Below, piece by piece: positions 29,074-56,252 of a stretch of DNA of 64,000 nt. Under the pieces are notes generated by a model. The model did not search any database. It was not told the origin of the DNA and saw nothing but the letters and a program-made list of their open reading frames with translations. Source of the stretch: an uncultured virus (IMG/VR IMGVR_UViG_3300027732_002873). Its lineage: Duplodnaviria > Heunggongvirae > Uroviricota > Caudoviricetes. The translations under genes were made by a program, and so were the position numbers. Location of the stretch: positions 1 to 64,000 of IMG/VR virus record IMGVR_UViG_3300027732_002873; one strand, 5' to 3'. Position 1 is the first letter of the stretch. Each line of letters begins with the position of its first letter.

Positions 29074-29150
29074 TGGTGCCCAAGGAGAGACTCGAACTCT
29101 CAAAATTTGGCTTCTAAGACCAACACGTATACCAATTCCGTCACCTGGGC
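29074..29150 (-). tRNA. tRNA-Leu(UAG), short variable loop
   Basis: CU-UAG-AA, 77 nt, no long variable arm, CCA. Confidence 0.9.
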
Positions 29151-29372
29151 ATTCATATGTAAAAATACTATAGGAACCATTGTACATCTATGTCTACCCA
29201 GGGGAACGTCTCCGTCAAGGGCCTGTACGGTCATTACTTCCTACATACTCCGTCGCATCTCCAGAGCTTGCGCTCCTGTTTCATATACTTATATTGAGCG
29301 TGAGCGGCCTCACTGTCCTCGCCTTAAGTACCTAACGGTGTAGGTAACCTATAATACATTTACATATGAATG
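29150..29372 (-). ncRNA. candidate structured ncRNA (about 220 nt)
   Basis: Long imperfect terminal stem (CAUUCAUAUGUAAA...UAUAGG / CCUAUA...UUUACAUAUGAAUG); GAGC-GCAA-GCUC hairpin; abuts tRNA-Leu. Confidence 0.6.
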
Positions 29373-29403
29373 ACGCTTCACAGCGTTTCATATGTGGGAT
29401 AAA

Positions 29404-29416
29404 TTTTTAAAGAACA
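29404..29416 (-). promoter_or_regulatory. boxA-like antitermination site
   Basis: TGTTCTTTAAAAA versus rrn boxA TGCTCTTTAACA, just downstream of tandem promoters. Confidence 0.65.
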
Positions 29417-29440
29417 ATGCTAATTGCTTAACATAGAACT

Positions 29441-29469
29441 ATTATAACACAGAATCCAATTTATGTCAA
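29441..29469 (-). promoter_or_regulatory. sigma70 promoter P2 of the tRNA array
   Basis: TTGACA-17 nt-TATAAT. Confidence 0.88.
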
Positions 29470-29533
29470 TTAGATTTGGCCAACTAGTTATTGGTAAACA
29501 ATGACTACAATGAATTACTGCTTAACAAAGTCT

Positions 29534-29562
29534 ATTATACAACATCTTTTACTTTATGTCAA
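29534..29562 (-). promoter_or_regulatory. sigma70 promoter P1 of the tRNA array
   Basis: TTGACA-17 nt-TATAAT. Confidence 0.88.
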
Positions 29563-47793: not shown

Positions 47794-47870
47794 TGGCCGG
47801 CCCTGAGAGATTCGAACTCCCAACTTCCAGTTTCGAAGACTGGCACTCTATCCAATTGAGTTAAGGACCG
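47794..47870 (-). tRNA. tRNA-Arg(UCG)
   Basis: Cloverleaf, CU-UCG-AA, CCA. Confidence 0.93.
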
Positions 47871-47874
47871 CGGG

Positions 47875-48804
47875 TTAAATTTTATATTTTTCAGACCTAA
47901 TATCAGTCGGACAAGTACAATATTTAAATGGACAGGCTAGATAGTTAGTATCTAAATTAAAATCAGTTATGTGACCCAGAGATTTAGCATTACATATTCC
48001 GGCATTGACTTTTCCGTTAAAATCAATCACTAAACTTTGACTAGCTACTTTACATTTCCAACCTTTAAATTCATTCCAATTATTGATAGTAATTTTACCC
48101 AGGACTAAATTTTCAGCTGATCCGTCGTCGAAATATATCACTGAGTTAATAAAGCCACGGGATGATGACGGATTCGCAATGTGGTTTTTAATCCATGCGG
48201 TTTGTTCATCTGTATAAGAATAATTTTCTCTAGTTGTTTCTAAATAATTTAGAACTTTTGTAGTTACCATTGGTTTCAAATAATCATCTATATTGTCGTA
48301 TAACTCTAATACAGTATCCCATCTGTCAGGATCGCAACTAAGGTTGAACAATATCGAAGTGCCGGACTCTACTATAGATTTTGCCAGATTATTTACTTTA
48401 TCTATCTTTGTAAACTCTGGATGAAGGGACATTGTTACATTATCTAAAAATGGCAAAGCTTCGCTCCACCATTCATCACTTCTAGATCCGTTGGTAGTGA
48501 CACCTAGATAAACATTTTCTACACTCATATATTTTATAATGTCAAGGAAATTAGGATGCAATGTCGGTTCGCCACCACCAAACTGAAGATTTAAATGCGT
48601 TCCGGAAGCTGCCACAGCTTTCAGCTTGTCCATAAAAATTATAATGTCAGAATAAATTGGAAAGCCTGGTAATTTTCCATTGGCATACTTTCCGCTGTGC
48701 AAGAAACTAGGACAGTAATTGCATTTAAAGTTACAAAAATCAGTGAGCTTCCAGTATATATTTATAACTGGTTTTTTGGGAATAATTTTAATAGGTTGTT
48801 TCAT
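47875..48804 (-). CDS. radical SAM protein with C-terminal Cys cluster
   Basis: CNFKCNYC, GGEPT, TTNG; start MKQP. Confidence 0.9.
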   Translation of the reverse strand: MKQPIKIIPKKPVINIYWKLTDFCNFKCNYCPSFLHSGKYANGKLPGFPIYSDIIIFMDKLKAVAASGTHLNLQFGGGEPTLHPNFLDIIKYMSVENVYLGVTTNGSRSDEWWSEALPFLDNVTMSLHPEFTKIDKVNNLAKSIVESGTSILFNLSCDPDRWDTVLELYDNIDDYLKPMVTTKVLNYLETTRENYSYTDEQTAWIKNHIANPSSSRGFINSVIYFDDGSAENLVLGKITINNWNEFKGWKCKVASQSLVIDFNGKVNAGICNAKSLGHITDFNLDTNYLACPFKYCTCPTDIRSEKYKI

Positions 48805-48840
48805 CGTGTATTTAAAGGTCAAATATGCTTTTTTTATTTT

Positions 48841-48928
48841 TGGCGGAAGCGGTGAGATTCGAACTCACGGAGCCTTTCGACCCGACAGTTTTCAAGACTG
48901 TTGCAATAGACCACTCTGCCACACTTCC
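48841..48928 (-). tRNA. tRNA-Ser(UGA)
   Basis: Long variable arm, CU-UGA-AA, CCA. Confidence 0.95.
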
Positions 48929-48934
48929 TTTATT

Positions 48935-49010
48935 TGGAGCGGCTAACCGGGTTCGAACCGGTGACATTCACGTTGGCAACGTGATGCTCTACCAACTGAG
49001 CTACAGCCGC
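48935..49010 (-). tRNA. tRNA-Gly(GCC)
   Basis: Cloverleaf, UU-GCC-AA, CCA. Confidence 0.95.
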
Positions 49011-49017
49011 ATTTTTT

Positions 49018-49091
49018 TGGCACCCGGGATAGGAATCGAACCTATACTAGCAGAGTCAAAGTCTGTTGTGCTGCCACTACACTACCCGGGA
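49018..49091 (-). tRNA. tRNA-Gln(UUG)
   Basis: Cloverleaf, CU-UUG-AC, CCA. Confidence 0.93.
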
Positions 49092-49100
49092 ATAAAAAGG

Positions 49101-49246
49101 TTTTCAGGAACTAGTCTTTGTACTATAGACTAGCGTGTCTCGTATAGGCAAGTTTATACACCCATCAATCATACTATAGTGTCATCACAGTTAACCCCAC
49201 TGTGACTAGATTGACAGGGACTCGAACCCATCGTCTATCCCGAAAC
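49101..49246 (-). ncRNA. tRNA-like/Y-RNA-like structured RNA candidate
   Basis: UUUCGGGA/UCCUGAAA closing stem, T-arm GGG-UUCGAGU-CCC near the 5' end, further hairpins; no anticodon arm. Confidence 0.55.
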
Positions 49247-49247
49247 T

Positions 49248-49324
49248 TGGTAGCCTCACTCTGACTCGAACAGAGGACCTATGCGTTATCAACACATTGC
49301 TCTAACCAACTGAGCTATGAGGCT
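49248..49324 (-). tRNA. tRNA-Ile(GAU)
   Basis: Cloverleaf, UU-GAU-AA, CCA. Confidence 0.93.
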
Positions 49325-49328
49325 AAAA

Positions 49329-49403
49329 TGGTACTCGATAGCGGAGTTGAACCGCTCTTACCTGGTTGAAAACCAGATGTCCTAACCGATAGACGAATCG
49401 AGT
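49329..49403 (-). tRNA. tRNA-Glu(UUC), second divergent copy
   Basis: Cloverleaf, UU-UUC-AA, CCA. Confidence 0.9.
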
Positions 49404-49409
49404 AAATTT

Positions 49410-49485
49410 TGGTGCCACAAACTGGACTTGAACCAGTAACACAAGAATTTTCAATCCTCTGCTCTACCATTGGAGCTACTGCGGC
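49410..49485 (-). tRNA. tRNA-Phe(GAA)
   Basis: Cloverleaf, UU-GAA-AA, CCA. Confidence 0.93.
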
Positions 49486-49494
49486 AAATTTGAT

Positions 49495-49570
49495 TGGGGA
49501 GTCGTACGGGAATCGAACCCGTATTAACGGAATCACAATCCGTGGTGTTAACCGTTACACTAACAACTCC
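49495..49570 (-). tRNA. tRNA-His(GUG)
   Basis: G-1:C73, UU-GUG-AU, CCA. Confidence 0.93.
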
Positions 49571-49571
49571 A

Positions 49572-49646
49572 TGGTGGTGATAGTTAGATTTGAACTAACG
49601 ACCGGCCGCGTATGAAGCGGATGCACTACCACTGTGCTATATCACC
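49572..49646 (-). tRNA. tRNA-Met(CAU), probably elongator
   Basis: Paired 1:72, UU-CAU-AC, CCA. Confidence 0.88.
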
Positions 49647-49718
49647 ATATAGAAACACACTTAAAACTGCTGTTAAACCCTTGCAGAGGCATGCCTAGTT
49701 AAAAAATGTGTTTCTATA
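49647..49718 (-). ncRNA. conserved-stem/variable-loop hairpin RNA H3
   Basis: AUAGAAACACAUU / AGUGUGUUUCUAU, 43-nt loop; fills exactly the spacer between tRNA-Lys and tRNA-Met. Confidence 0.6.
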
Positions 49719-49794
49719 TGGTGGGACCAGCGAGATTCGAACTCGCGACCAACGGATTAAAAGTCCGCTGCTCTACCGGCTGAGCTATAGTCCC
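49719..49794 (-). tRNA. tRNA-Lys(UUU)
   Basis: Cloverleaf, CU-UUU-AA, CCA. Confidence 0.95.
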
Positions 49795-49905
49795 ATATGA
49801 TCCATGCTCCAAGAGCGTGGATGGATTTGTAAAAATTTTCTTTTACGTGCCATCCATGACCATACGGGTCAAAGATGACACTATCGTTTCGCCGAACGTT
49901 TCATG

Positions 49906-51156
49906 TCATTTTTCCTTATCTAAAATTAACGGGATACCAAATGTATTCTCGAACGATTCGTTTCTAATCTTATCGTATGTTTGAGTAAACTCTATAAAGT
50001 TCTTCTCATCGAGCGGCCTAGAAACATTCAACATCTTCACCACCTTCGGACGTAAATTCAGCAATTCATTTCTAAATATTGCAAAATTAGGACAGTCTAA
50101 TATATCTACTGCTAAATCAATTTCACGTAACATACGTTCTTTGAGATGTGCAGGTGCAGATGTAAAACGAAGACTTTGCACTAATATAGTATAACATTTA
50201 ATCAATATGTTATTATTTTCACGATATAGTCTCATCAAAAATAATGCCAGATTAGATACATCTAACAAAACATAAGCTGAAATTGCAACATTTATCGAGC
50301 ATAATATTGGCTTTGGCATAGAATTGAATGTTAATACATTTTTTTCAATTGTGTCCCACTTTGTACCGTGTCTAATGTATTCAGCTGTTTTACCAACGCC
50401 GTCGATGCTCATGGTAAATTCTACTTTAGGGAATTTCATTAAACGATCTACAAACAGTTTATTATATACACTTGTATTTGTAAATAATTCTAATTCAACT
50501 TGCTCGTTAAATTTGTGTTCAATTAAAAAATCAAGATAATCATAATAACCTTTGATTAGAAATGGTTCCCCGCCAGTAAAACATACTTTACGCAATTCAC
50601 TTAGTAATTCGATATTCTTTAAACCTTGAATATTATCATCAGTAATTTTTAACACGCTGTCGTCAGTGTCTTCGAAAAAGATATTATCGGGATTATGAAT
50701 ACCATTACTGGCTAAATTGTATTTTTGTTTTTCTTTTGCAATTTCAGAACTCGATGTTTCGTCACACATTCTGCATTTCATATTGCACAAATTACTAAAT
50801 CTCAATTCTATTCGTTTAGGCTTTGTGGGAGTATCAACAGTTATATCGTCAAACCATGGTTGATCTTCTAGATAGGGCTCTTCACCTATGTTCCAGTAAC
50901 GCCAAGAAGCACCCCTGGTACTTTTGAGACCTAATCCTTCTTTCGTTTCGCAATTTTCGCATTCTTTTGGGCGTATGCCATTAATCATTTTTTGTTTAAT
51001 GTCTACTAACCACTCGCTGTTTATATACTCTTCCATGGTCATGTTCATGAGACCGTTTCTTATGATATGGCACGGACTTGGAGAGTTGATATGAAAATAC
51101 ATTGCAGTCCATGGATTTGGACATATAACAGTTTGAGAGAATTTGGTTTTTGACAT
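49906..51156 (-). CDS. radical SAM protein with N-terminal Twitch/SPASM-like domain
   Basis: CPNPW...PC...CENC; CNMKCRMC; TGGEPF; SIDG. Confidence 0.9.
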   Translation of the reverse strand: MSKTKFSQTVICPNPWTAMYFHINSPSPCHIIRNGLMNMTMEEYINSEWLVDIKQKMINGIRPKECENCETKEGLGLKSTRGASWRYWNIGEEPYLEDQPWFDDITVDTPTKPKRIELRFSNLCNMKCRMCDETSSSEIAKEKQKYNLASNGIHNPDNIFFEDTDDSVLKITDDNIQGLKNIELLSELRKVCFTGGEPFLIKGYYDYLDFLIEHKFNEQVELELFTNTSVYNKLFVDRLMKFPKVEFTMSIDGVGKTAEYIRHGTKWDTIEKNVLTFNSMPKPILCSINVAISAYVLLDVSNLALFLMRLYRENNNILIKCYTILVQSLRFTSAPAHLKERMLREIDLAVDILDCPNFAIFRNELLNLRPKVVKMLNVSRPLDEKNFIEFTQTYDKIRNESFENTFGIPLILDKEK

Positions 51157-51189
51157 AGTCTATTATTTAGTACACTGGCATTACTTATT

Positions 51190-51263
51190 TGGCGTACCCA
51201 CTAGGACTCGAACCTAGACTGACGGTTTTGGAGACCGCGATGCTGCCATTACACTATGGATAC
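51190..51263 (-). tRNA. tRNA-Trp(CCA)
   Basis: Cloverleaf, CU-CCA-AA, CCA. Confidence 0.93.
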
Positions 51264-51271
51264 GAATTGAA

Positions 51272-51490
51272 TTTGTAAGTAGTGCTACCACGTTATCAGC
51301 ACCATTCACCCGATTATACTAGTCCGGACGGGAGTCGGTACGTCACTTGGGATTCATCCAGCTGATACGCCATAATGTATACCGATTACCAACGAAGGCG
51401 ATCAGTCGGGCATCGAACCCGCAACCTTTTACTAGACAGTACCTTCGAAGAATACTGAACAGCGTGACTTCACTTGCTGACACTTACAAA
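51272..51490 (-). ncRNA. candidate structured ncRNA (about 220 nt)
   Basis: UUUGUAAGU/ACUUACAAA closing stem, GUCAC/GUGAC pairing, T-arm-like CGGG-UUCGAUG-CCCG; between tRNA-Asp and tRNA-Trp. Confidence 0.65.
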
Positions 51491-51493
51491 ACT

Positions 51494-51568
51494 TGGCGAT
51501 GCGTGGGAGAGTCGAACTCCCGTCTTCGGATAGACAATCCGAGATAATAACCGTTATATGAACGCACC
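51494..51568 (-). tRNA. tRNA-Asp(GUC), divergent copy with U37
   Basis: Cloverleaf, loop UU-GUC-UA, CCA. Confidence 0.88.
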
Positions 51569-51574
51569 TAAATT

Positions 51575-51659
51575 TGGTGGAGATTACTGGGATCGAACCA
51601 GTCGTGCCCTAAGGCGGCGGATTTACAGTCCACTGCATCACCATTGATGCTTCATCTCC
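51575..51659 (-). tRNA. tRNA-Tyr(GUA)
   Basis: Variable arm, CU-GUA-AA, CCA. Confidence 0.93.
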
Positions 51660-51660
51660 A

Positions 51661-51715
51661 TTAAACATACTGTCTGCGACATTTTAGTCCAGGCCAGATC
51701 AATATGTGTATTAAA
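51661..51715 (-). ncRNA. conserved-stem/variable-loop hairpin RNA H4
   Basis: ACAUAUU / AGUAUGU, 29-nt loop; abuts tRNA-Tyr 5' end. Confidence 0.5.
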
Positions 51716-51744
51716 ATAATAAATATATTAAACTAATAATTTAT

Positions 51745-52074
51745 ATGAATGAGATATTCACCGAACTTAACGAAATATTTAAAAGGAGCCCTGCTCGTTT
51801 TTTAAAAACATATTTTCGTGCTAACATATCTCCAATATCAAATTCTACAATTAAAGTAGAGATATCATCTACTTTAGATTTTTTTGGAGATCGAGTGGTA
51901 AATCCATTCCCTAACTATCAAGAAGACTATCAAAAATTAATAGAAAAATGGCACGCCACTGGCATTGCAATAGGTTCTATAGAGTACTACTTAACTGATA
52001 AAAAACTTAATTATTCTAAAGAAATTTTTGTCGTCGACGATGAAATTAATGCGAGGTTCATAATCAATGTATAA
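51745..52074 (+). CDS. hypothetical protein
   Basis: 109-aa ORF antisense to the tRNA array. Confidence 0.6.
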   Translation: MNEIFTELNEIFKRSPARFLKTYFRANISPISNSTIKVEISSTLDFFGDRVVNPFPNYQEDYQKLIEKWHATGIAIGSIEYYLTDKKLNYSKEIFVVDDEINARFIINV

Positions 52075-52660
52075 TTTTATTAAACAAGATACATTTAAAA
52101 AATGTCAACGATCCTTTGATGTTCACAATCAGCTTGACGGTGAATTTATGAATTTAATAAAAAACACACACGATGACTTTATTTCTCACGAAAAGTTAGA
52201 TATAAACAGTTTTGTTATTACCGACGAATCAGAGATAAAATTAATTCATTCAAGTGCTAATCACGAATATGAATTACCTAAGTTTGCATGGAAAACTAAT
52301 ACTCAGGTAATAGCACCTATATTAATCTTGTGTACGCCAAAAAGAAATAACGATATGCACTCAATGATGCAAATTGGCAGGTTACAAACTAAACTAGGCA
52401 TGCTAGCAATTGAACAAGGATATTTAACTGGCTTCTGCTGTAGTTTCAAGATTCATGCAATGTCAGCTTGGGATACTTTAAAAAAGTATATTCAAATTGA
52501 CGAAGCTTCGGGTCAACTGATTGCTCCAATAACATTATCTATAGGAAAGCCATTTGATGCCACAAAACCATATAACTGGTCTCACATGCATTATAAGTTT
52601 CACGGGCACCATTATAGAACCGATTATACTAATATTACAGTAACATATCCCGAAGAATAA
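52067..52660 (+). CDS. nitroreductase-like protein (divergent)
   Basis: CQRSFD, N.QV.AP, G..TGFC.. and LSIG motifs. Confidence 0.6.
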   Translation: MYNFIKQDTFKKCQRSFDVHNQLDGEFMNLIKNTHDDFISHEKLDINSFVITDESEIKLIHSSANHEYELPKFAWKTNTQVIAPILILCTPKRNNDMHSMMQIGRLQTKLGMLAIEQGYLTGFCCSFKIHAMSAWDTLKKYIQIDEASGQLIAPITLSIGKPFDATKPYNWSHMHYKFHGHHYRTDYTNITVTYPEE

Positions 52661-52748
52661 TTTAAACACACTCTTTGGAATGTGTGTATTAAAGCATACT
52701 AAGGCCAATGTAGTGGACCATCCTTAATTTAGTAATATGCTTTAATAC
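52661..52748 (-). ncRNA. tandem hairpin RNAs H6 (33-nt loop) and H5 (6-nt loop)
   Basis: GUAUUAAAGCAUAUU / AGUAUGCUUUAAUAC followed by ACACAUU-CCAAAG-AGUGUGU. Confidence 0.55.
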
Positions 52749-52872
52749 GATCTAATTTTTAGTCCCACACAAGGGATTCCATCCTAGTCGCCGCCCGTTT
52801 ACATCAATGTTTATAGTGCGATGTCAGGACCTCGTTTCCTGGGCATTTCTGCTCTTATTACACACTCTGCGA

Positions 52873-53037
52873 TCAACGATGCTTGCTGACAAACATCTCC
52901 CGCTTTTTCAAAGCTAAGTGCATGACTTCAGCACGTTTAAATTTGTTAAGAATCAACTGTTTAGTTTCTTCTCGAGTTAACGTATGCTGTCGAATCCACT
53001 CAGCTTCTTTTTGTTTCTTAATATCTACGTCTGTCAT
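52873..53037 (-). CDS. small basic hypothetical protein (54 aa)
   Basis: MTDVDIKKQKEAEWIRQH...; AAGGA SD; first gene after the attenuator. Confidence 0.6.
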   Translation of the reverse strand: MTDVDIKKQKEAEWIRQHTLTREETKQLILNKFKRAEVMHLALKKREMFVSKHR

Positions 53038-53054
53038 AATTCCTTTTCGCAAAC

Positions 53055-53083
53055 AAAAAACCCTAGGGTTTTTAAGCCTAGGG
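53055..53083 (-). terminator. intrinsic terminator (attenuator)
   Basis: CCCUAGG-9 nt-CCUAGGG-UUUUUU. Confidence 0.85.
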
Positions 53084-53109
53084 TCCTTGGAAGTTAAAAT
53101 GTAATCTTA

Positions 53110-53235
53110 TTACACTTTGGTCTCCAGGACCCCGATACGCTCTTGTGAATCATCATAGCTAATAAACCAAATAGACGGCACTAAGCCCATCTGCTTGGAT
53201 GTATTAAAATGTTTATGATTCACAATCGTTTGCAT
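53110..53235 (-). CDS. putative attenuator leader peptide (41 aa)
   Basis: MQTIVNHKHFNTSKQMGLVPSIWFISYDDSQERIGVLETKV; AGGA SD; 3' end holds the antiterminator strand GGGGUCCUGGA. Confidence 0.7.
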   Translation of the reverse strand: MQTIVNHKHFNTSKQMGLVPSIWFISYDDSQERIGVLETKV

Positions 53236-53284
53236 ATCTTTTCCTAAAATTTCTTTCTTAACGCTTTCTTTAGCGTATGTGTAT

Positions 53285-53313
53285 ATTATACATTTATTTA
53301 TCTTTTATGTCAA
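53285..53313 (-). promoter_or_regulatory. sigma70 promoter of the leader/tRNA operon
   Basis: TTGACA-17 nt-TATAAT. Confidence 0.88.
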
Positions 53314-53343
53314 TTACTTTTGAGTAAACATAAAAACTAATTT

Positions 53344-53419
53344 TGGTGCCCCCACGATGATTCGAACACCGGACCTACTGATTACAAATCAGTTGCTCTA
53401 CCAGCTGAGCTATAAGGGC
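53344..53419 (-). tRNA. tRNA-Thr(UGU)
   Basis: Cloverleaf, UU-UGU-AA, CCA; own TTGACA-17-TACAAT promoter at 53439-53467. Confidence 0.95.
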
Positions 53420-53479
53420 TTTTGTTTAACTTGTGTCTATTGTACTGTATTTACAATTTTGTGTCAATATATTTTTCTT

Positions 53480-54895
53480 TTATATGTCCAATCCCGGCAC
53501 ATGTTTCTTTAAAAGTTCTGCAATATCAGACAATGTATGTTTCCAGTTTAGATTTCTAGACTGATCCATTAGATTCATTACTTGCACAAAAGTTTCCAAA
53601 TTTGATTCCGTGTTTGGTGTAGATGTTGTTGGGTTGTCACGAAAATGCTTTATTTGTTGTTGAACGAAATTTTCATATCCTCGGATAGATTCACATTCTT
53701 CGGATTCTAAAAATTTAGTAAGCACTGAAATTACTTCTTCTTTAGCAGAATTAGGTAAATTCGACACATTCATCCATCCCGGTCTAGTTACAAATCTCAA
53801 TGACATCGAAGCACCTATCTGTTTTGCTAACTTTGCAACGCGAATTACACCATAAACATTGGCCAAGTGACAAACTATGCTTATGTATTTAATTTTTATG
53901 TTGGCTTCTTGAATTCGAGTTATGTTATCATATAACTTGTCAAAATTTCCAGGATTTCGAACCACATTATAGCGGTCACCAGTGTCGTCGACGCTGACCC
54001 TCAATTCAACTTCTTTAAAAAATTTCCATTTGTTAATTATGTTTGAATTGACAACTGTCAAGTTTGTGTCGTAACACAGCATAATATTTTTAGCAAAATC
54101 GTTTTCAATTAGATAAGTTAAGTGTTCTTCCATTGCTGGTACCAGCAAGGGCTCTCCGCCTGTAAAGTAAATATGCTGTAACTGGGGCGCAATTTTTTTA
54201 AACTGATTTTTCCACGATTCAGTTTCCCACCAGTTTTCTTCATTTTGCAATTTCAATTTGCCTAACTGATTCTTTTCAAGAGAATAAAATTTAGTTTTAT
54301 CTTTCCAGTACTGAGTATTTCCAGTGACTGGATCTATTCCACCCAATTGAAATTTAACTGATCGTCCGCTGGCTTCAGTTTTTGAAAATTTTCTAGACAG
54401 CAGATCCCAGTCTTCATACCACAGACTACTATTTCCTGGATCACACATAATGCACTTGAGGTTACACAGATTACCAAATCTTATATCTAAATTAATTAAC
54501 TTAGTAGTGTCGACATCAACGGAGCCATCATCGTTTGTTACATCAAATGCTTCACCGGCTTTGACATAGTCAAGTTTATTTTGAGATAATCTGATAAACT
54601 TTTTACGACGACTCGTATCATTGCTGTAATTTTCCCAATTATAGCAATTACTACATCGTTGAGGTTTAATGTTATTACTTAAATCTAACCTGTGTTGTTT
54701 GTGTATTTCGCTGTTCATTGCCGTGATGATTGAATGTGTTTTTACATTCATTGGAGTTCCGTTGGCCTCTCTGGTTAGGCCGCCGTCAGAAGACAAACAG
54801 CAAACTCTTAAATCGCCTTGCATATCAATCTGAATCTGATTATATACTTCTGGACAAAAACTTTCGTTGCTAAAATTATTTCCTTTTATAGTCAT
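53480..54895 (-). CDS. radical SAM protein with N-terminal Twitch/SPASM-like domain
   Basis: FCP...VCC...CSNC; CNLKCIMC; TGGEP; CTAAATA-5 nt-ATG. Confidence 0.9.
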   Translation of the reverse strand: MTIKGNNFSNESFCPEVYNQIQIDMQGDLRVCCLSSDGGLTREANGTPMNVKTHSIITAMNSEIHKQHRLDLSNNIKPQRCSNCYNWENYSNDTSRRKKFIRLSQNKLDYVKAGEAFDVTNDDGSVDVDTTKLINLDIRFGNLCNLKCIMCDPGNSSLWYEDWDLLSRKFSKTEASGRSVKFQLGGIDPVTGNTQYWKDKTKFYSLEKNQLGKLKLQNEENWWETESWKNQFKKIAPQLQHIYFTGGEPLLVPAMEEHLTYLIENDFAKNIMLCYDTNLTVVNSNIINKWKFFKEVELRVSVDDTGDRYNVVRNPGNFDKLYDNITRIQEANIKIKYISIVCHLANVYGVIRVAKLAKQIGASMSLRFVTRPGWMNVSNLPNSAKEEVISVLTKFLESEECESIRGYENFVQQQIKHFRDNPTTSTPNTESNLETFVQVMNLMDQSRNLNWKHTLSDIAELLKKHVPGLDI

Positions 54896-55242: not shown

Positions 55243-55857
55243 TTATATATTTGTGTCAATGCTTTCATAAATTTCTTTTACTTTCCTTGCTACAACTTTT
55301 GCCAAGCCAGGATTGACATGAACAGCATGTGGCACGAGTTCATGACGAACATAATTACGCATGAATTTTGTATCCTTGTTGCTTTCATCATTGACCCAAG
55401 GTACTTGATTACGATTAGCCCAGTCAATTAGTTCCTCTTTAGGTGTAAGTAAAAAAGGTCTAACAACTTTATTTCTACGATAAGGAATTATTTTAGCAGT
55501 TCCATGCATCATACTCCAAAGATAAGTTTCTACACAATCATCTAAATGATGTGCTGTAATAACACCTTGGCCTAGTGTATCTAACCAACTATAGCGTTGA
55601 TTGCGATAAAACTCTTCTAGGCTTTCTATCTTAACTTTAGGGCTACTAATACGTCCCAATGCCAAGGGCCATTTACGATGCACACAATATTGCGATACTA
55701 ATTCAAATCCTAGTTGACTTGCCGGTGTGCCGTGATGAAAGAACGCACATTTAATTTCTCTACTACGGCTAATAAAGTCTGCCACAGCCATGCTGTCAAC
55801 ACCGCCGCTGACAGCAATAACTGGTTGCTGGGGCAGTTCACCTAATAAGTTAATCAT
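55243..55857 (-). CDS. tilS: tRNA(Ile)-lysidine synthase (PP-loop domain only)
   Basis: AVSGGVDS, RY, TAHHLDD..ET, RPFL, DESN and RN.VRH motifs. Confidence 0.92.
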   Translation of the reverse strand: MINLLGELPQQPVIAVSGGVDSMAVADFISRSREIKCAFFHHGTPASQLGFELVSQYCVHRKWPLALGRISSPKVKIESLEEFYRNQRYSWLDTLGQGVITAHHLDDCVETYLWSMMHGTAKIIPYRRNKVVRPFLLTPKEELIDWANRNQVPWVNDESNKDTKFMRNYVRHELVPHAVHVNPGLAKVVARKVKEIYESIDTNI

Positions 55858-56252
55858 GCCGCAAGACTTTTGATCATTGTGTAGTGATTCCACGCCGACT
55901 GCACACTTTCATTATCTGACACAGGACTAGGTACAATGTCATACCAAGTGTCTTGCAAACTATGAGCATTACTATACATGCCCTTGACAACTGCTCTAGG
56001 CTGATGTAGCTTGCCGCTTTCAAACAAACGTTGAGCAACGGCACAGGCATCGGCCAAGCTGTAGGCGCTCATATCATAGGCAGCTCTTCTACCACTACCT
56101 TGATGTTCATAGTAGTATTGTTCGATGACATTCATTAATGTTTCTATAGTAGGGCAGTTTGTATTGCTGACAACGAACAATACATCTTCTTCATTGACTT
56201 CTCCGGCAAGTATACTTTTAACACACTTGCCCAGACTTGTTCCGATTTTCAT
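55854..56252 (-). CDS. hypothetical phage protein
   Basis: IGTSL.KCV..I..G.V and GKLHQPR motifs. Confidence 0.7.
   Translation of the reverse strand: MKIGTSLGKCVKSILAGEVNEEDVLFVVSNTNCPTIETLMNVIEQYYYEHQGSGRRAAYDMSAYSLADACAVAQRLFESGKLHQPRAVVKGMYSNAHSLQDTWYDIVPSPVSDNESVQSAWNHYTMIKSLAA

Follow-up and report, generated by a model that had tools for sequence, protein, structure and literature searches.

A putative ribosome-mediated transcription attenuator is encoded in a 64,000-nucleotide (nt) stretch of DNA from an uncultured lake phage of the Caudoviricetes (IMG/VR IMGVR_UViG_3300027732_002873, positions 1-64,000; this whole stretch is called the window below). The element, which lies on the minus strand throughout, comprises a consensus promoter, a short leader open reading frame (ORF), an antiterminator hairpin and an intrinsic terminator, and it probably heads an operon consisting of a small gene (ORF2), a structured RNA and an array of transfer RNA (tRNA) genes. 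Twenty-four related phage and metagenome sequences, which fall into two diverged clades, share a common order of parts: a promoter, an open frame of 37-46 codons, a stop codon beside the 5' arm of the antiterminator, an antiterminator overlapping the terminator, ORF2, the structured RNA and the tRNA array. Judged by this comparison, the conserved cis-regulatory unit is real, and its immediate target, going by gene order, is ORF2 together with the structured RNA.

The relatives were recovered by two alignment searches. The search with the leader peptide, seeded by four full-length homologues of 41 residues that are present in a protein collection, returned 18 metagenome loci and 3 viral loci, while the search with ORF2 added 7 viral loci, of which 5 were distinct; another viral scan, made with a wider ORF2 alignment, yielded no new loci. 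Clade 1, the clade of the window itself, contains 20 sequences, and clade 2 consists of the 5 distinct sequences of the ORF2 search. The frame is open in all 21 loci of the leader search (40-46 codons), which carry the same promoter, 5' hairpin, Shine-Dalgarno (SD) sequence and 3' element, and in all five clade-2 loci (37-39 codons). Synteny with a tRNA array is found at 11 clade-1 and 4 clade-2 loci. At the 11 clade-1 loci, the first tRNA gene follows ORF2 after 181-239 nt on the same strand with no inserted cassette, and in clade 2 the corresponding gap, obtained by hand subtraction, is about 230-290 nt at three loci and about 1.4 kb at the fourth. Promoter-like sites with at least 10 of 12 matches were absent between the leader and the first tRNA gene in all 18 clade-1 loci scanned. 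A blastn search of 52700-53500 against named phage genomes gave a tRNA-Thr as its sole match, and no second copy of the element was found in the window, where the terminator region matches a single place at three or fewer mismatches.

The initial annotation had described a perfect promoter, an SD-led ORF of 41 codons and a terminator ending in six U residues, and all three are present (Table 1), the terminator having an 8-bp stem. Its stem is G+C-rich, its U tract ends at 53055, and it was missed by a consensus terminator scan because the loop is longer than 8 nt. The further claim that leader codons 35-38 pair with an arm overlapping the terminator was recovered by folding: this long-range stem (P1) encloses an inner hairpin (P2), and since P1 takes the first 4-5 bases of the terminator 5' arm, the two structures are mutually exclusive. 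Such a trp/his-like geometry, likewise proposed at the outset, is kept in the 20 clade-1 and the 5 distinct clade-2 sequences. Within the 96-nt 3' part, the antiterminator is the minimum-free-energy fold (-35.3 kcal/mol, z -4.51, equalled by 0 of 200 shuffles), and in 18 of the 20 clade-1 sequences its conformer is 3.1-6.9 kcal/mol more stable than the fold in which the terminator is enforced. Across the 15 distinct clade-1 sequences, 97.7% of P1/P2 cells are paired, compared with 23-61% when the partners are slid as a control, and 100% of terminator cells, compared with 6-75%; conservation of the antiterminator pairing, which had been put forward as a check, therefore holds within clade 1, where the structure statistics are modest. 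The outermost P1 pair occurs as G.U, A-U and G-C, the P2 and terminator loops differ among sequences in both base order and length, and the 3' 80 nt are far better conserved than the coding middle of the leader. The hairpin at the 5' end of the transcript keeps its stem and varies in its loop among the clade-1 relatives, and it is missing from clade 2.

Clade 2 provides, on comparative grounds, the strongest argument that mutual exclusion has been selected, as the same arrangement is rebuilt there from other bases. Its leader is very different, and its ORF2 is 48-75% identical. All five distinct loci (L029 and L031-L034, around 2760-2810) have a consensus promoter whose -10 hexamer is followed 7 nt later by an ATG, with no SD sequence, so that the message, which starts with two ATG codons, is apparently leaderless. 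The stop codon directly follows the antiterminator 5' arm, and past it lie a small inner hairpin and then a U-tailed terminator. Of the 7 bases in the terminator 5' arm, 6 belong also to the antiterminator 3' arm. Beyond the terminator lie an SD-led ORF2, the structured RNA and arrays of 12-28 tRNAs. The antiterminator is shifted along the terminator arm, and the exclusion is built from different bases. This replacement bears on a model in which P1/P2 is bound by another RNA or by a protein (ORF2, say, regulating its own leader) that chooses between terminator and antiterminator, much as RAT-binding antiterminators do, leaving the ribosome irrelevant. In favour of this model, ORF2 is a basic two-helix protein and always the first gene after the terminator, and P1/P2 is invariant in sequence in 18 clade-1 sequences, beyond what pairing needs. 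However, the hairpin sequence is wholly different in clade 2 although ORF2 retains the identity given above, the antiterminator is already the more stable structure without any factor, the open frame is left unexplained, and ORF2 matches no fold or family; regulation by such a factor is the least probable of the explanations considered here.

Alternatively, the terminated transcript of about 220 nt could itself be the product, namely a structured small RNA acting in trans and possibly of dual function, with the ORF secondary. The fold of the full transcript (-76.2 kcal/mol, z -7.95) and the near-invariance of the 3' domain with its U-tailed terminator would accord with this idea, as would the attenuator-derived small RNAs known in Sinorhizobium according to excerpts of the source (PMC6614838). 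Nevertheless, the long-range pairings of the full-length fold, one between the SD region and the terminator 3' arm and the other a long hairpin within the leader ORF, were set aside, neither being kept in relatives when judged by eye. In-frame indels and the retention of an SD sequence or start codon argue for translation, the missing promoter of ORF2 is left without explanation, and no Rfam family is matched, which together make a product of this kind very improbable.

Translation of the leader is suggested by several features of the relatives. All length differences among leaders, including several indels, are in frame, and three reading phases of the antiterminator arm are used; L021 and L022 use two further phases across the 5' arm and hence differ in their C-terminal residues, yet their frames still stop inside P2. 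Because P2 is A+U-rich and holds stops in several frames, the position of the stop within it is a weak argument. The ratio of non-synonymous to synonymous polymorphism (pN/pS) is 0.56 over the leader, 0.40 at its N-terminus, 0.63 in its variable middle and 0.77 at the RNA-constrained end, which indicates that the peptide or its codon set is under some constraint. The initial annotation had expected the peptide to be poorly conserved, and these values contradict it. Its emphasis on amino-acid diversity was likewise misplaced: 18 of the 20 amino acids occur in the leader, and 22% of random 41-residue windows from the phage's own ORFs also hold 18. Nor is the use of codons ending in G or C remarkable as claimed, since the third-position G+C content of the first 31 codons is 0.39 compared with 0.31 in phage ORFs, a value of 0.39 being reached by 27% of windows; such codons are ordinary outside the RNA-constrained end.

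Conventional gene function offers another explanation of the same data. The leader ORF might be an ordinary small early gene that has its own promoter and is followed by a constitutively leaky terminator, in which case the hairpin would tune a fixed level of read-through or stabilise a 3' end, and translation would have no regulatory role. The pN/pS values below 1, the four full-length homologues called as proteins, some residues common to both clades and the ordinary amino-acid diversity all fit such a gene, and terminators between phage early genes are common. On the other side, clade 2 re-creates the overlap between hairpin and terminator with another set of bases, the stop codon lies at or inside the antiterminator in every sequence despite three phases and differing C-termini, and the 3' 80 nt are more strongly conserved than the coding middle. 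The leader at L029 also lacks Leu, Glu, Asp, Val and Thr, in agreement with its array, and no Pfam or PHROGs family is matched above threshold by the leader. An ordinary small gene is accordingly regarded as unlikely, with a larger share of probability than either a binding factor or a trans-acting RNA.

A ribosome-dependent attenuator that gates ORF2, the structured RNA and the tRNA array is the most likely reading of the element. From the anatomy, conservation, synteny and composition bias, we infer how the ribosome would be coupled to transcription, what it would sense and in which direction control would run. Host RNA polymerase would start at the consensus promoter. A first ribosome that kept pace, and was on the stop or within the last ten or so codons by the time the polymerase arrived at 53055, would cover the antiterminator 5' arm; the terminator would then fold and transcription would end after about 220 nt. 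A ribosome lagging in the first 30 or so codons, or one that was never loaded, would allow the stabler antiterminator to form first, to occupy the terminator 5' arm and to let transcription continue into ORF2, the structured RNA and the tRNA genes. The spacing is compatible with this scheme. In clade 1 the P1 5' arm precedes the leader stop by 10-21 nt, and in clade 2 the stop adjoins it. A ribosome with the stop codon in its A site would be expected to shield P2 entirely and the P1 5' arm for the most part, leaving the terminator 5' arm free. The consequences of ribosome position were modelled simply in 16 sequences: only RNA downstream of the ribosome was folded, at a stage when the terminator 3' arm is yet to be transcribed; a previous footprint model, in which any upstream partner across the ribosome was counted, had given noisy output and was replaced. 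The model counts 7 bases in the terminator 5' arm. With the A site in early codons, 4-7 of them (mostly 6-7) are paired upstream in 16 of 16 sequences, and with the ribosome near the stop fewer are paired (0-5, depending on the sequence). No upstream strand that would enforce termination without translation (1:2 pairing) was found in clade 1, where the untranslated RNA folds as the antiterminator; in clade 2, a candidate strand resembling 1:2 pairing is present in the full-length fold of 4 of 5 sequences and absent from the co-transcriptional snapshot.

Several lines of evidence concern what would be controlled. ORF2, which begins shortly after the terminator, is under purifying selection (pN/pS 0.32) and has no promoter of its own, which means that read-through of the terminator must occur. 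It is a basic protein with a predicted two-helix hairpin (AlphaFold2 predicted local distance difference test, 90.8); searches of Pfam and PHROGs gave nothing above threshold, the Atlas search returned scores of 0.79 only, and Foldseek found no match to the model in the PDB. The structured RNA behind it contains several hairpins, whose loops are conserved, as well as one stem carrying an insert that varies; RNAalifold predicts 38 pairs, 16 of them with compensatory changes, and no Rfam family matches at E<=1. Contigs from RNA libraries of three of four freshwater runs bridge the terminator without differences and span the leader and ORF2 (Table 1), and run X5 yielded no such contig. Upstream, bins across the radical SAM gene (53496-54783) have little or no cover in three of the four runs, uncovered parts constituting no evidence, and among the 32 of 160 RNA-library pieces listed, none reaches upstream of 53268.

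The tRNA array is separated from the leader in the window. On the minus strand, the terminator is followed by ORF2, the structured RNA, a two-ORF cassette on the plus strand, and finally tRNA-Tyr with the remaining array. The list of 13 tRNAs given in the initial annotation is correct, but the array, in front of which the leader had been placed, is not directly downstream. The promoter at the head of the element is the nearest strong one upstream of the array: a scan of the window for sigma-70 sites with at most one mismatch found none between 53285 and 46108, the next on this strand being 46108-46080. On the window alone, control of the tRNAs by the leader would be doubtful; the relatives change the picture.

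The composition of the leader was compared with the downstream arrays using the leader residues outside the last 6-10 codons, a residue being counted as covered when its amino acid has a tRNA in the array. The loci are mutually related, so the P values are not independent, and comparisons from locus to locus are post hoc. At L029, 28 of 30 residues are covered (expected fraction 0.46, P 4e-8), and at L031, 29 of 31 (0.50, P 2e-7); the leaders of these two clade-2 loci are made almost only of amino acids with tRNAs in the downstream array. Coverage is 22 of 29 at L019 (P 0.006), 32 of 34 at L025 (expected fraction 0.85), 27 of 32 at L034 (0.78) and 22 of 30 in the window (0.62, P 0.13), and the match in the window's clade is weak. 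All array amino acids occur in the leader at L025, L029 and L031. Additional correspondences were noted by eye: one leader lacks Tyr and has no tRNA-Tyr downstream, another lacks Leu where the Leu tRNAs lie only in an upstream array, a third contains Asp, Glu, Thr and Pro with those tRNAs downstream, and two clade-1 loci without Phe in the leader have no tRNA-Phe. A hand tally over 8 related loci and 20 amino acids gave 92 cases in both array and leader, 11 in the array only, 31 in the leader only and 26 in neither. The window's leader contains no Ala.

Codons with downstream tRNAs make up the larger part of the leader, clearly so in clade 2 but only weakly in the window itself. Their slow decoding is therefore the likely signal, and it would provide negative feedback on the phage's own tRNA supply. 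Taken further, the array may act as a decoding homeostat, with the leader serving as a test message written in codons read by the downstream tRNAs, the array being switched on when these are scarce and shutting itself off once supply is restored. This broader proposal is tentative and somewhat less probable than not; it is plausible mainly through the two related loci L029 and L031. Scarcity could then be due to a host tRNA pool that does not match, to decay of host tRNAs driven by the phage or to anticodon nucleases of the host. Why and when phages use their tRNA genes is debated, and the proposals include a match to codon usage, the replacement of host tRNAs lost to degradation and the evasion of defences that cleave tRNAs. 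If the homeostat idea is correct, a conserved cis-element would tie the expression of a whole tRNA array to the decoding speed of a short test message, and it would offer a direct experimental handle, as the shortage that induces the array should shift when leader codons are swapped. Attention is also drawn to ORF2 and the structured RNA of about 200 nt, two uncharacterised parts that would be co-regulated.

A number of observations weigh against ribosome-mediated attenuation and its extension to the tRNAs. The terminator is the minimum-energy fold at full length in L021, L022 and 4 of the 5 clade-2 elements. Covarying stems, which had been suggested as a check, were found in part: one P1 pair and one terminator pair are compensatory, and a column common to both structures changes from U to C in L021/L022, converting G.U to G-C in P1 and U-A to C-G in the terminator, but this covariation comes from that single lineage, and most pairs are invariant in clade 1 (7 of 11 in P1 and 7 of 8 in the terminator). 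Given the purifying selection on it and the residues common to the two clades, the leader may act as a peptide, and none of its codons form a run specifying a single amino acid. Some 900 nt of antisense cassette lie between the leader unit and the tRNAs in the window. The bridging contigs are compatible with read-through, in libraries that can hold DNA and with a contig being no proof of a single transcript. Coverage of leader residues is not significant in the window, L006, L011, L025 or L034. Furthermore, the leader at L011 has Phe without a tRNA-Phe in the array, Asn occurs in every leader and tRNA-Asn is absent from most downstream arrays, and one Leu codon at L031 is unreadable by the Leu tRNAs of its array.

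Table 1. Features of the element and its surroundings, with window coordinates.
Feature	Coordinates	Strand	Remarks
Sigma-70-type promoter	53285-53313	-	perfect -35 and -10 hexamers, 17-nt spacer; kept in 20/20 clade-1 sequences
Transcript 5'-terminal hairpin	53261-53276	-	5-bp stem, 6-nt loop; from folding
Shine-Dalgarno core AGGA	53242-53245	-	6 nt before ATG; in all clade-1 sequences
Leader ORF	53110-53235	-	41 codons plus stop; ATG at 53235, stop at 53112-53110
Antiterminator P1, 5' arm	53122-53133	-	leader codons 35-38; from folding; 53133-53122 pairs with 53092-53080
Inner hairpin P2	53096-53118	-	10 bp; contains the leader stop; from folding; stem kept, loop varies
Antiterminator P1, 3' arm	53080-53092	-	last 4-5 bases double as the start of the terminator 5' arm
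Intrinsic terminator	53055-53084	-	8-bp stem, 9-nt loop, U6; 53084-53077 pairs with 53067-53060
ORF2	52873-53037	-	54 amino acids; SD about 10 nt and start about 20 nt after the U tract; both clades
Conserved structured non-coding RNA	52665-52872	-	about 200 nt; between ORF2 and the first tRNA; both clades
Two-ORF cassette	51745-52660	+	109 and 197 amino acids, 8-nt overlap; insertion of this phage and its closest relatives
tRNA-Tyr	51578-51659	-	Rfam (36 bits) and relaxed-threshold ARAGORN; missed by default ARAGORN
tRNA array	47794-51659	-	13 tRNAs interleaved with a radical SAM gene: Tyr, Asp, Trp, Lys, Met, His, Phe, Glu, Ile, Gln, Gly, Ser, Arg
Bridging contig X1	52771-53268		
Bridging contig X2	52767-53231		
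Bridging contig X3	53016-53244		

The cassette between the structured RNA and the array is, by comparison with relatives, an insertion outside the conserved unit. It is flanked by two copies of a hairpin motif (52679-52694 and 51701-51716) and is absent from 11 relatives. Its ORFs look real: in a comparison with the 97%-identical relative L002, 12 of 16 substitutions counted by hand fall at third codon positions. The cassette genes match no family or phage, and a tblastn search with the 197-residue ORF against named phage genomes returned nothing.

The surroundings of the array contain further genes. Radical SAM genes at 53480-54895 and 49906-51156 on the minus strand, one of them with a SPASM domain, are interspersed with the tRNA genes; at L003, where a radical SAM gene is 83% identical, synteny with the window is absent beyond that gene. 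A PP-loop ATPase gene (55243-55893, minus strand; PF01171, E 8e-32), of a kind that includes tRNA(Ile)-lysidine synthase, adjoins several tRNAs with a CAT anticodon, one of which may be a lysidine-modified tRNA-Ile. The failure of default ARAGORN to detect tRNA-Tyr is repeated at L006 and L011, and likewise for tRNA-Ser at L039. In many relatives, the first gene of the array (for example, L006 1649-1740 and L011 3558-3649) is called by ARAGORN as a tRNA-Ile(TAT) of the unusual length of 92 nt. A second tRNA array in the window (29150-28244, minus strand) is preceded by a pair of perfect promoters and some 290 nt of ORF-free, non-coding RNA (29150-29562), and no leader ORF or terminator of the kind studied here was found ahead of it. 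Across the window, 18 near-consensus sigma-70 sites were counted, all on the minus strand, compared with 1.41 expected, and on this basis the whole window reads as one long early-type transcription region.

Known systems share parts of this design. The leader attenuators of the trp, his, leu and phe operons (pheL in excerpts of PMC3082878) and the multivalent leaders of thr and ilvGMEDA resemble the phage element in that a short ORF lies close to the promoter and some bases of an intrinsic terminator also belong to an antiterminator. In these operons, a ribosome at the stop masks the 5' strand of the antiterminator and a lagging ribosome leads to read-through, and the same logic is proposed here; the multivalent leaders sense several amino acids at once, as the phage leader would. 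Unlike them, the phage leader has no run of codons for a single amino acid, clade 1 lacks an upstream strand that forces termination when the RNA is untranslated, and the element would control phage tRNA genes, a small ORF and a structured RNA instead of biosynthetic enzymes, with no sequence relationship between the two. In the pyrBI leader of E. coli, a leader of about 44 codons likewise has no special codon run and the distance between ribosome and polymerase decides the outcome, but that ORF crosses the terminator, and a close ribosome prevents termination, whereas the phage ORF stops earlier, and a close ribosome should promote it. T-box riboswitches also stand ahead of translation-related genes and set antitermination by tRNA charging, but they bind tRNA directly and have no leader ORF; in Rfam 15, the region 53055-53313 matches no family at E<=1, T-box included, the one exception being a snoRNA hit at chance level (20 bits, E 0.32).

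A further likeness is to the upstream ORF (uORF) attenuator of whiB7 (wblC) in mycobacteria and other Actinobacteria. According to excerpts of PMC10274678, antitermination there is believed to result from stalling in the uORF, the kind of starvation sensed depends on what the uORF encodes, and the uORF varies in sequence while its composition is kept. As far as those excerpts describe it, the whiB7 uORF is enriched in Ala, an amino acid missing from the window's leader, and it controls a WhiB-family transcription factor in bacteria and not phage tRNAs, so that the likeness is one of logic only. Full-text literature searches, judged by titles and the beginnings of abstracts, turned up nothing on leader-peptide attenuation of phage or bacterial tRNA genes. 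Within the reach of those searches, the proposed mechanism belongs to a known class, of the trp/his and whiB7 types, and its use on phage tRNA genes is without a counterpart. If correct, it would extend leader-peptide attenuation from the amino-acid operons and whiB7 to the tRNA genes themselves.

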